A DNA stretch of 64,000 nt, taken from IMG/VR virus record IMGVR_UViG_2872147552_000001; one strand, given 5' to 3'. The notes under the pieces were generated by a model that saw only the letters and a list, made by a program, of their open reading frames with translations, was not told where the DNA came from and did not search any database. This stretch comes from a virus (Duplodnaviria > Heunggongvirae > Uroviricota > Caudoviricetes). This document shows, in pieces, positions 59,503 through 61,842 of the stretch (positions are counted from its first letter, which is position 1; each line of letters opens with the position of its first letter). The position numbers were made by a program, and so were the translations under genes.

Positions 59503-61842
59503 TTACTCTTCTACTGACTCGGTGGGGTTGTCTTTTGCTCTTCGGTCGTCGATTGCCTGCAAAGCCGCAATGATTTCAGCCAGTGGCTTCTCCCGATACA
59601 TCTCGACGATCTGCGATTTGGTGTATTTCTTGTCACCAATTTCAACTCGCCCGCTGGCGTTCTTTGGCAGGTATCCTTCTTCCAGCATGTACTCGACGAG
59701 CGATTCGATAACGTCGAGGCCACGAGTAGGATCGAAGTAGAATTTCCAGGTGCATTTGCCATACGGTGGTGCAACTTTGTTTTTGATGCATTCTGCGCCT
59801 ACGTCCTGGCCGATCTTCTCTTTACCATCCTTCATCACCGATGCACCAAGACGGATACGTACAGAAGCGTAGAACTTCGGTGAATCTCCACCTGGCGACG
59901 TAGTAGGGTCGCCAAACATTACACCGATTTTTGTGCGAACCTGATTCAAGAAGATGATGCAGGCGTTGTATTTGCGTGCCCACAAAGCCAGAGTAGGGAA
60001 GTTCGCACTCGTCGCACGAGCCAGTGCCGTATTGTCGTTCATGTTTAGCTGATCTTTGTCTTTGGCAGTGCCTTCAGCCATCTTTTCGAACTTCTCGGCT
60101 TTGGAGTTCGGAACCATAGACGCAAGAGAGTCAGCCACGATACAGATTGGTGCTGATTCGGGGATAAGCTCTTCATCACGAACCAATTTAAGTATTGTGC
60201 CGATCAACTCTACAGAGTCTTCGAAGGTATCTGGCTGCTTGTATACCCACTGACCGTCATCCTCATCTGCGTTCAGGCCATTGGCGACAGCCAGGCCAAC
60301 GTCAAAACTGTTTTCATGATCGAGGAATACCGCCAGACCATCCTGTTTTTGTGCTGACACCATCGCAGCCGTCGCGAGGAATGTGTTGTGGCTGATAATC
60401 CCGTTAGACCAGAAAGAGTGTGTTTCCGGCATCGCTACGTCGAACGTTGGTGCTTCACCTTCCTCAATAGCCACGACTTCGTCGTAGAACAAGTTAGAGC
60501 CAATTACCGCTGCCAGTTGTGCAAACAGATGCTCGTTAAAACGATTCTTTCTGCCAATGAAGGAGACATAGATTTCTCGCAGTTTGTCTATTCCGACACG
60601 ATCGCCGCGGCCAATAACGTGGTCTACCAGAGCGTAGTCTTCACGGGTGGTCTTGGTGAGCGACTCGTAGAGTGATTTCACTAAGCCGCTGATGTGCGGA
60701 ACATAGCCTGAGTAAGTGCGGTCAAAACCAATGTCCCGTTTGGTTGCCACTGATAAACGTGCCGGAGATTCGAAACCAATCGTTGACAGAAAAAGGTCGT
60801 AATTAGAGCCACTGAATGACAGCCGGTAATATGTATTTTCATAACCCGCGACGTGTTTTTCAGAGATAGTTGACGTAATCCCCAGATTCAGGAGCATGAG
60901 GCGAATTTGCTGTAGCAGCAGCCCACTCGCGCTCACAACCTCAATGCAGCGACCATCATTGACGTGGCATTCCAGCTCAAAGTAGCCGCGAAGGAATGCA
61001 ATTTGAGCCTCGCTATTGGCGCGACGCACACTCAACGGAACCTGCTTGCCAGCAGCTTTCTCATACTCCAGACCATATTCTTTAAAAAGCAGCGAACGCA
61101 CCTCTTTGCTAAACAGCACATGGTCTTCCGAGCCGTTATGTTTTCTCGTAACTGGCATCTTGTCTGATACCAGCGAAATGAGGCGGTAGTACTCATCCTT
61201 GATGAATGGATCTGTGTTAGAAAAATGCACAGAATTTTCAGAGGCCACGTATCCGTCAGCAATTAAATAGCCCATCAGTTTTGCGATATTGGCATCCAGG
61301 TGCTGATCGCCGAATTGATGTGTGCCAACCATTGAAGGAATCGTGTCGCCTACACTGATTTTTTCAGCATACCGCCAGACGATATTGCCTAAGTCGTCAA
61401 CCACACGGATTGGGTGACGGAACGTAGCCTCGATGTAACCCCCTGATGCCAGCTTAATGCGCTTGAATTTGCGACGGTTGTTCCATGTCAGGTGTGAGGT
61501 CTTCTCTATCACGCCATTTTCATTGATGAGTCCAACGTTATGCTCTACATCGCGAGTAGTGCATGTCGCTTTGTACCCTTCAATCTCAAACAACTCTTTC
61601 ACTGTTACCATTCCACGCTCCGTCAGCAGCATGGTGTCTGCGGTAACACATTTCCCCGCACTTGGTGGCCCGAATACTTCTACGATACGACCACATGGGA
61701 AACCGCCATCGTAACGACCGGAAATAGCTTTGTTTAACGGAGGAAAGCCTGTGTCAATCCAATGAGTTACTTTCTGAATTTCGTCGTTGCTACCGATTTT
61801 CTTTTTCAGAGCAAGTGCCAGTGCGGATTTTCCTTTTGCCAT
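59503..61842 (-). CDS. RecA/UvsX-family recombinase interrupted by an intein
   Basis: Extein reads [14 protein letters not shown][intein][27 protein letters not shown]..., colinear with RecA GRIVEIYGPESSGKTT...; 779-aa precursor. Confidence 0.8.
   Translation of the reverse strand: [779 protein letters not shown]
60385..61650 (-). mobile_element. intein (422 aa) with LAGLIDADG homing-endonuclease domain, inserted in the recombinase Walker A motif
   Basis: Starts with Cys ([13 protein letters not shown]), ends His-Asn followed by Thr (+1); internal [11 protein letters not shown] and [22 protein letters not shown]-like motifs. Confidence 0.75.

Follow-up and report, generated by a model that had tools for sequence, protein, structure and literature searches.

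Inteins occupy five insertion points in the RadA and RecA recombinases, according to the survey by Topilina, Novikova, Stanger, Banavali, and Belfort (Topilina et al., 2015, NAR 43:6631, PMC4513877). One of these, point c at the P-loop, is described there as common to archaeal RadA (c1, for example in Pyrococcus horikoshii) and bacterial RecA (c2), and Table 1 lists 'c2 (65-486)' in eight Escherichia coli, two Enterobacter, and one Salmonella strains, with PI-MtuI, the RecA intein of Mycobacterium tuberculosis, at site a (residues 252-691) and the M. leprae-type intein at site b (about residue 206) (PMC4513877). In the Walker A motif, the junction of Lys with Thr (K/T, where the slash marks the insertion point) is a 'classic' site for inteins in the P-loop (Kelley et al., 2016, PMC5050341), and the RadA-c1 precursor, as shown for P. 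horikoshii (Pho) RadA, has no ATPase activity until it is spliced (PMC8529194). The present analysis concerns a 64,000-nt stretch from a virus of the Caudoviricetes (IMG/VR record IMGVR_UViG_2872147552_000001; the whole stretch is called the window), in which a RecA-like recombinase gene on the minus strand (59503..61842, encoding a precursor of 779 amino acids (aa) and 86.6 kDa) is interrupted within its Walker A motif by an intein of 422 aa. This intein is the published RecA-c2 intein and has been known since 2015, because the coordinates 65-486 appear in that paper and the window protein is identical at 775 of 779 positions (99.5%) to the protein of one of its strains, E. coli MS 145-7, whose gene is plasmid-borne and has the same gene neighborhood as the window. 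An earlier note on this DNA, which held that the known RecA inteins are mycobacterial and lie at other positions, was therefore wrong on this point, since the enterobacterial P-loop intein c2 is already in the 2015 paper. What is added here is context: the home of the 'E. coli RecA intein' is a gene of SSU5/pHCM2-type phage-plasmids and not cellular recA, and the population-genetic picture of its probable homing in these widespread enterobacterial elements is a useful, incremental addition.

The element, which interrupts Walker A at the K/T, is a class 1 intein in which a monomeric LAGLIDADG homing endonuclease with two motifs is nested. In translation, the N-extein (aa 1-64; 61651..61842, minus strand, as are all features of this gene) ends in the Walker A residues GPPSAGK, which align with GPESSGK of E. 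coli RecA (...IYGPESSGK), so that the insertion point corresponds to K72/T73 in the mature numbering of that protein. The intein follows with Cys65 and occupies precursor residues 65-486 (60385..61650; 47.6 kDa), as delimited by translation, profiles, the structural model, and relatives. It ends in His485-Asn486, and the C-extein (aa 487-779 plus stop codon; 59503..60384; delimited by RecA alignment) begins with Thr487 as the +1 nucleophile (codon 60382-60384). Conceptual splicing restores GPPSAGKT in an extein of 357 aa. The earlier note had already given the limits of the 422-aa insert, an extein of about 357 aa, and the Cys, His-Asn, and Thr junction residues, all of which proved exact when the translation was sliced. 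The GC content is unchanged across the insert. Profile matches of both extein and insert are far beyond chance: the conceptually spliced extein matches Pfam RecA (PF00154, E = 1.7e-42), and the insert matches Pfam Intein_splicing (PF14890, E = 5.9e-12, 46.1 bits against a cut-off of 35.8), LAGLIDADG_3 (PF14528, E = 2e-18), and, over precursor residues 65-147, NCBIfam TIGR01445 for the intein N-terminal region (35.5 bits against a cut-off of 24.5). All three Pfam matches exceed their curated cut-offs, which was the profile alignment that the earlier note had proposed as a check. The insert is called a real intein because the Pfam matches, a confident AlphaFold model, and the presence or absence of exactly 1266 bp among alleles all agree.

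All splice-junction residues and the block A, B, F, and G residues of a class 1 intein are present in the sequence. The N-terminal splicing (Hint) lobe (intein aa 1-112; 61315..61650; from the model and TIGR01445, with an approximate 112/113 boundary) contains Cys1 of block A and the block B TxxH motif Thr76-Phe-Arg-His79 (61414..61425), which is kept in all nine homologues covering it. The C-terminal splicing lobe (intein aa 386-422; 60385..60495) contains blocks F and G with Asp404, His411, His421, and Asn422; blocks A and G, singled out for careful alignment in the earlier note, are both present and conserved in homologues. Between the two lobes lie the LAGLIDADG endonuclease domain and a helical region after it (intein aa 113-385; 60496..61314; from Pfam and Foldseek, with approximate edges). 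As the earlier note had proposed, the domain holds two LAGLIDADG-like motifs, of which motif 1 reads LMGYLIADG (intein 125-133; 61252..61278), aligns with FLGYLIADG of the TliVMA intein, and contains the putative catalytic Asp132, and motif 2 reads LRGYFELEC (intein 220-228; delimited with one further residue as intein 219-228, 60967..60996) and contains the putative catalytic Glu227. Both acidic residues stand at position 8 of their motifs and are aligned to Asp residues in the motifs of TliVMA and PI-PkoII; the counterpart of Glu227 is the Asp of motif 2, which reads GYFIGDG in PI-PkoII and AYIVCDG in TliVMA.

The predicted fold leads to the same assignment. An AlphaFold2 model of the intein (12 sequences as input; pLDDT 86.2, pTM 0.87) is beta-rich over residues 1-107, and its secondary structure over residues 120-280 fits the duplicated alpha-beta-beta-alpha-beta-beta-alpha LAGLIDADG fold. 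The best Foldseek match of the model is the TliVMA intein (E = 5e-24, TM 0.73), followed by the whole homing inteins PI-PfuI, PI-PkoII, and PI-SceI, and the middle domain matches the endonuclease I-DmoI (target TM 0.65-0.72). The central proposal of the earlier note, that a class 1 LAGLIDADG intein splits Walker A in a RecA-type recombinase of a phage (here a phage-plasmid), is thus upheld by profiles, model, and block residues.

The intein is patchily distributed among otherwise closely related alleles. It is missing as an exact 1266-bp block from the CMS-2020a, SSU5, pHCM2-type, and pMT1-type alleles, and seven intein-free alleles, read directly, have an uninterrupted junction; the comparison with intein-free homologues suggested in the earlier note therefore places the difference precisely at K/T. 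The C-extein of the intein-free Escherichia phage CMS-2020a is 99.9% identical to that of the intein-containing phage PhiR41_1. This recA is found on about 700 PLSDB plasmids; it is contiguous in about 462 of them, and 247 (∼35%) have the intein. The insert is thus absent from about 65% of alleles, which is not the pattern of the conserved, non-excised domain of about 420 aa that the earlier note had considered as the alternative. Intein-containing plasmids are spread over eight genera, with frequencies among all plasmids with this recA of 123/222 in Escherichia, 71/242 in Klebsiella, 41/91 in Enterobacter, 6/20 in Citrobacter, 2/9 in Cronobacter, 1/42 in Salmonella, and 0/63 in Yersinia (for example Y. 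pestis). Of 5,426 complete E. coli genomes, 249 have the recA extein and 120 (about half of the carriers) also the intein; all copies are plasmid-borne, with no chromosomal place in any of these genomes. The protein is present in public databases as about 1,500 sequence variants (a cluster of 1,496 members). A few PLSDB plasmids (NZ_CP074043.1, NZ_CP029493.1, and CP057895.1) contain fragments only, namely bases 79-1091 of the intein over two places, bases 884-1266 (under a gene named 'recombinase'), and bases 1024-1266; these may be rearranged or decaying copies.

Sequence divergence within the gene is discordant between the intein and its surroundings. Twelve intein-containing alleles from Escherichia, Klebsiella, Enterobacter, Citrobacter, Cronobacter, and Kluyvera were cut in codon register into N-extein, intein, and C-extein before comparison. 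Among the 11 with a complete C-extein, the inteins are 97.2-100% identical and the exteins 81.6-86% identical between lineages; between Klebsiella and Citrobacter, for example, intein identity is 99.9% and extein identity 83.7%, and the dS is about 0.06 for the intein versus about 1.9 (saturated) for the extein. In matched pairs of intein-containing and intein-free alleles, the extein differences cluster in blocks adjoining the junction. In the Cronobacter pair, the junction-flanking blocks agree at 56/60 and 47/60 positions, and the 13 other C-extein blocks agree at 60/60 (11 blocks) or 59/60 (two blocks). Within the flanking blocks, the intein-containing allele matches the flank common to intein-containing alleles of other lineages. 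The same junction-centered pattern is found in Enterobacter/Citrobacter and in the window, and the replaced tract in Klebsiella is only about 12 nt long. Compared with its closest E. coli relatives, the window C-extein has nine clustered substitutions within positions +1 to +42 and is identical thereafter; this first 42-nt segment (60343..60384), a probable co-conversion tract, is of the Citrobacter/Enterobacter/SSU5 type, unlike that of the E. coli relatives, and replaces Ile with Val at precursor residue 495. This suggests that the window flank was co-converted from a lineage other than that which its 'E. coli-type' intein resembles.

The bases at the junction itself give a similar picture. 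The combination of GCGGGGAAA before and ACATTCCT after the insertion point is present in 11 of the 12 intein-containing alleles and in none of the seven intein-free alleles, and the twelfth (E. fergusonii) has GCGGGGAAA and ACATTCCT except for an A at -7. At least four distinct empty-site variants, differing at wobble positions only, have evidently been invaded. An intein-free allele with donor-type flanks would indicate either precise intein loss or the source allele; none was found with a junction-spanning 83-mer, a negative that is weak because of the sensitivity of megablast. Matches covering at least 80% of this query, which necessarily span the junction, are all 80-90% identical to it (87.8-88.9% among the matches listed), and those with at least 95% identity cover one flank only. 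The chromosomal recA of the host was considered as a target of the endonuclease and rejected, since the sequence around K72/T73 has 21-25 mismatches in 48 positions with every type of invaded site and would thus be a poor candidate.

Both the splicing lobes and the endonuclease domain appear to be under purifying selection. The dN/dS of the intein as a whole is 0.08-0.16; taken separately, the endonuclease domain has 0.10-0.21 and the N-terminal splicing lobe 0.02-0.10, and the C-terminal splicing lobe has no substitution between the two main intein types. In the E. albertii plasmid NZ_CP034165.1 (coordinates 1009-2850 and 2788-3666 of the extracted locus L011), an IS3 element of the IS911 family cuts the C-extein of the interrupted recA short, so that an ORF of 614 aa remains. 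The intein of this allele is intact and only 92-94% identical to all others; that it is a decaying copy was rejected on its dN/dS of 0.08, which points to a separate, older intein lineage. Presence and absence, discordance, co-conversion tracts, and selection together appear to fit homing by double-strand break (DSB) repair better than random recombination, and the intein is probably mobile now or was so very recently. Of the earlier note's proposal of an active or recently active intein, recent mobility is the part that these population data support; splicing, DNA cleavage, and the cleavage site of the window intein are deduced from sequence.

The reading that best accommodates these observations is very probably that of a class 1 intein that is competent to splice and whose LAGLIDADG homing endonuclease is active or was so very recently; the precursor, with its P-loop split, would be inactive until splicing restores the recombinase. 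The 86.6-kDa precursor would be translated with a broken P-loop and would not bind ATP, a loss of ATPase function that is proposed for the window protein by analogy because it is established for Pho RadA (PMC8529194). Splicing would begin with an N-S acyl shift at Cys1, the N-extein would then move onto Thr+1 by transesterification, Asn422 would cyclize with the help of His421, and a final O-N shift would leave two products, a RecA-like protein of 39 kDa in which GPPSAGKT is whole again and the free intein of 47.6 kDa. When related phage-plasmids share a cell, the free intein would cut intein-less alleles of the same gene as a site-specific endonuclease, and DSB repair from the intein-containing copy would carry over the intein along with anything from a few bases to some tens of bases on its flanks. 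Homing at present, among the SSU5-type phage-plasmids of eight or more enterobacterial genera, appears somewhat more probable than the contrary.

Several points weigh against this reading. As a +1 nucleophile, Thr is weaker than Cys or Ser. The second LAGLIDADG motif is atypical, with Glu and Cys in place of the consensus Asp and Gly, and its position 8 is Gly in two homologues; the low dN/dS of the intein is based on few substitutions (10-28 non-synonymous); and purifying selection on the extein is mostly older than the invasion and is therefore no proof of splicing. General homologous recombination among mosaic phage-plasmids could also yield part of the discordance between intein and extein. 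A literature search found no paper testing the splicing or cleavage of RecA-c2, and the treatment of RecA-c2 in the 2015 paper, the only one found to mention it, is computational on this point (PMC4513877). It is unlikely that splicing is intact and the endonuclease dead or nearly so, with the patchy distribution arising from homologous recombination or module exchange together with vertical descent. The non-canonical motif 2, the lack of cleavage data in the literature search, and the existence of inteins at the same site with degenerate or lost endonuclease domains (homologues P0011, P0016, and P0017) would all suit such an account, as would the mosaic nature of SSU5-type elements, in which extein type does not track host genus (the E. 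coli plasmid CP073940, for instance, has a Citrobacter-type extein). However, the replaced tracts are very short and centered on the insertion site in several independent lineages, reaching about 9-15 nt upstream and 3-50 nt downstream, which is the signature of break repair at the site and not of random crossovers. In addition, inteins that are 99.6-99.9% identical reside in exteins that are 84-86% identical (Klebsiella, Enterobacter, Citrobacter, and Cronobacter), acidic residues are retained at both catalytic positions, and the endonuclease domain keeps its dN/dS of 0.10-0.21 even across the 7%-diverged E. albertii lineage.

It is far less probable still that the 422-aa insert is a retained domain, either a non-splicing insertion or an exapted endonuclease joined to pieces of RecA, in a functional 779-aa protein. 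Most RefSeq records name the whole ORF an endonuclease, and PHROG 9666 models the full 779 aa, but these names are automatic, and other RefSeq records read 'intein-containing recombinase RecA'. An intact GxxxxGK/T is needed for ATP binding in P-loop NTPases. The insert splits this motif, is exactly absent from about 65% of otherwise near-identical alleles, has every splice-catalytic residue conserved in relatives down to 30% identity, and has a C-terminal splicing lobe that does not change between the two main intein types. A further proposal overlaps the favored reading of a splicing, homing intein and adds that splicing is conditional, so that the intein would serve as a post-translational switch keeping the recombinase off during plasmid-like carriage and turning it on by a cue such as DNA damage or single-stranded DNA, redox state, or temperature. 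The insertion point is that of the RadA of P. horikoshii and Thermococcus sibericus (Tsi), in which native exteins lock splicing (PMC4513877, PMC5790916), a second intein Cys, Cys30, is kept in five of the nine homologues covering the region, and the host element alternates between plasmid and lytic lifestyles. However, half of the E. coli carriers do without the intein; its entry into these alleles is recent and its extein backgrounds, four or more in number, are diverged, which speaks against locks co-evolved between intein and extein, and Pho-like intein-extein orientations are sterically infeasible for the RecA-c2 precursor, according to Topilina et al. (PMC4513877). Such a switch is accordingly unlikely; if it were true, it would be a counterpart of the P-loop RadA intein on a mobile element that is mesophilic and clinically widespread.

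More distant relatives of the intein occupy the same position. A homologue search over 5.8 billion proteins found, beyond the close cluster, inteins of 30-45% identity in other RecAs from metagenomes and one chromosome of a metagenome-assembled genome (MAG), all inserted at the same GK/C...HN/T of RecA. Blocks A, B, F, and G are conserved among them, Cys1 is kept in all homologues with an N-terminal junction and HN/T in all with a C-terminal junction, and the C-terminal splicing lobe is the most conserved stretch among them. Because these homologues share one position, the K/T of the RecA Walker A can be regarded as a recurrent niche in cellular and viral RecAs. For example, a chromosomal cellular-type RecA on a 550-kb contig of MAG GCA_027484465.1 (locus L019, 4001-6166) has an intein with a degenerate endonuclease domain, and an unrelated 102-kb phage-like contig (locus L020, 6001-8217) has an intein in a RecA with DNA polymerase A, methylases, and an integrase nearby; the allelic inteins of these two loci are 32-37% identical and lie at the same P-loop site. 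The sole non-RecA match of the search was a metagenomic RuvB of 542 aa (P0018), which has a mini-intein of about 170 aa at the K/T of its Walker A, beginning with the same CVTADT and ending in HSFIGNGFCNHN before the Thr. This RuvB mini-intein hints at possible jumps between the P-loops of different ATPases.

The host protein is a diverged, mobile-element RecA-like recombinase and not a cellular orthologue, since it fails the cellular-RecA equivalog TIGR02012 (132.9 bits, where 325.3 would be required). In an alignment with E. coli RecA, the C-extein is seen to contain the catalytic Glu, Walker B, and L2 loop. The earlier note had assigned the gene to a 'RecA/UvsX family', of which the RecA part holds, with Protein Data Bank matches of the exteins to bacterial RecA down to 6e-27, and the UvsX part is loose (T4-type UvsX, 5.7e-5), though the protein matches PHROG 97 'UvsX-like recombinase' at 9e-92. 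PHROG 9666 covers the full 779 aa as a single family labeled 'unknown function'. The same protein of 779-781 aa also stands under inconsistent automatic names in public records. Most RefSeq entries from E. coli and Klebsiella use 'LAGLIDADG family homing endonuclease', whereas 'intein-containing recombinase RecA' occurs in entries from Enterobacter and Kluyvera, and 'hint domain-containing protein' or 'recombinase RecA' elsewhere. The exact window protein is WP_134809646.1, encoded on a Shigella sonnei contig of 109 kb and recorded as 'LAGLIDADG family homing endonuclease [Shigella sonnei]'. For a recombinase gene, the annotation 'LAGLIDADG family homing endonuclease' is misleading and needs correcting.

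The window belongs to an SSU5/pHCM2-type phage-plasmid, with 96-97% identity over the recA region to Escherichia phages PhiR41_1 and Cyrano. A literature search found no paper linking the RecA-c2 intein to SSU5-type phage-plasmids. The interrupted recA lies in a recombination module with genes for a gp32-like single-stranded DNA-binding protein, a 5'-3' exonuclease, a 90-aa ORF, a small membrane protein, and an SPFH protein. The 90-aa ORF (61845-62117, minus strand), between the exonuclease and recA, is never missing from this module, has no Pfam match and is annotated in relatives of many genera as 88 aa (WP_000920224/WP_000920226). Elsewhere in the window, a full-length methionyl-tRNA synthetase ORF (22973-25135, minus strand; PF09334 at 4.6e-166) has catalytic, anticodon-binding, and C-terminal tRNA-binding domains and is 95-99% identical in phages Cyrano (where it is annotated as such), PhiR41_1, and CMS-2020a; an aminoacyl-tRNA synthetase is unusual cargo on a temperate element of about 110 kb. 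Further minus-strand genes encode an ATP-cone-containing large subunit of class I ribonucleotide reductase (771 aa; 46646-48961), an SbcC/Rad50-like ATPase (638 aa; 50347-52263), and a DUF4942 protein (561 aa; 32296-33981), none of which contains an intein. Ribonucleotide reductase is a common intein host. Searches of the window for tRNA genes and Rfam families found nothing.

If the intein is homing now, it would offer a natural, E. coli-tractable system for intein invasion dynamics, useful in E. coli K-12 for measuring intein homing, co-conversion, and fitness cost; the intein-containing phage PhiR41_1 is recorded with MG1655 as host. In architecture, the window intein resembles TliVMA, PI-PfuI, PI-PkoII, and PI-SceI in having a Hint fold with a nested LAGLIDADG domain, and its motif 1 is almost the same as that of TliVMA (both GYLIADG), but these inteins and I-DmoI are only 10-22% identical to it and are archaeal or from yeast, in other host proteins. 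In common with the mycobacterial RecA inteins, it lies within a bacterial RecA. The M. tuberculosis RecA intein also has a homing endonuclease. The NCBIfam model of the M. tuberculosis type, NF007072, matches the extein segments only (97.9 bits against a cut-off of 1024), and sites a and b differ from the insertion at residue 64/65 in the window (PMC4513877).

At the level of the insertion site, the closest parallels are with other P-loop inteins. Similar to the mycobacteriophage terminase TerL1-a inteins, the window intein lies between Lys and Thr of Walker A on a phage genome (PMC5050341), and it shares with the other 'classic' K/T inteins (RFC-S, MCM, DnaB-b, and IF2) an insertion between the invariant Lys and the nucleophilic Thr. 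Unlike the window intein, TerL1-a and these four reside in other host proteins and have no close sequence relationship to it, although the best NCBIfam matches of the intein part are the RFC and IF2 intein-containing models. The RadA-c1 mini-inteins of P. horikoshii and T. sibericus occupy the homologous point, at the end of Walker A in a recombinase of the RecA superfamily, and follow the class 1 mechanism (PMC4513877, PMC5790916, PMC8529194). In contrast to the window intein, they are about 170 aa long, without an endonuclease, archaeal, and chromosomal, their similarity to it is marginal (phmmer E = 0.1), and their splicing is conditional by experiment. RecA-c2, finally, is the same element as the window intein in residues (65-486), P-loop point, and host taxa. 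In the passages of the paper examined, it is treated as 'bacterial E. coli RecA' without discussion of a plasmid or phage origin, mobility, or population frequency, whereas the gene is placed here only on SSU5/pHCM2-type plasmids (PMC4513877).

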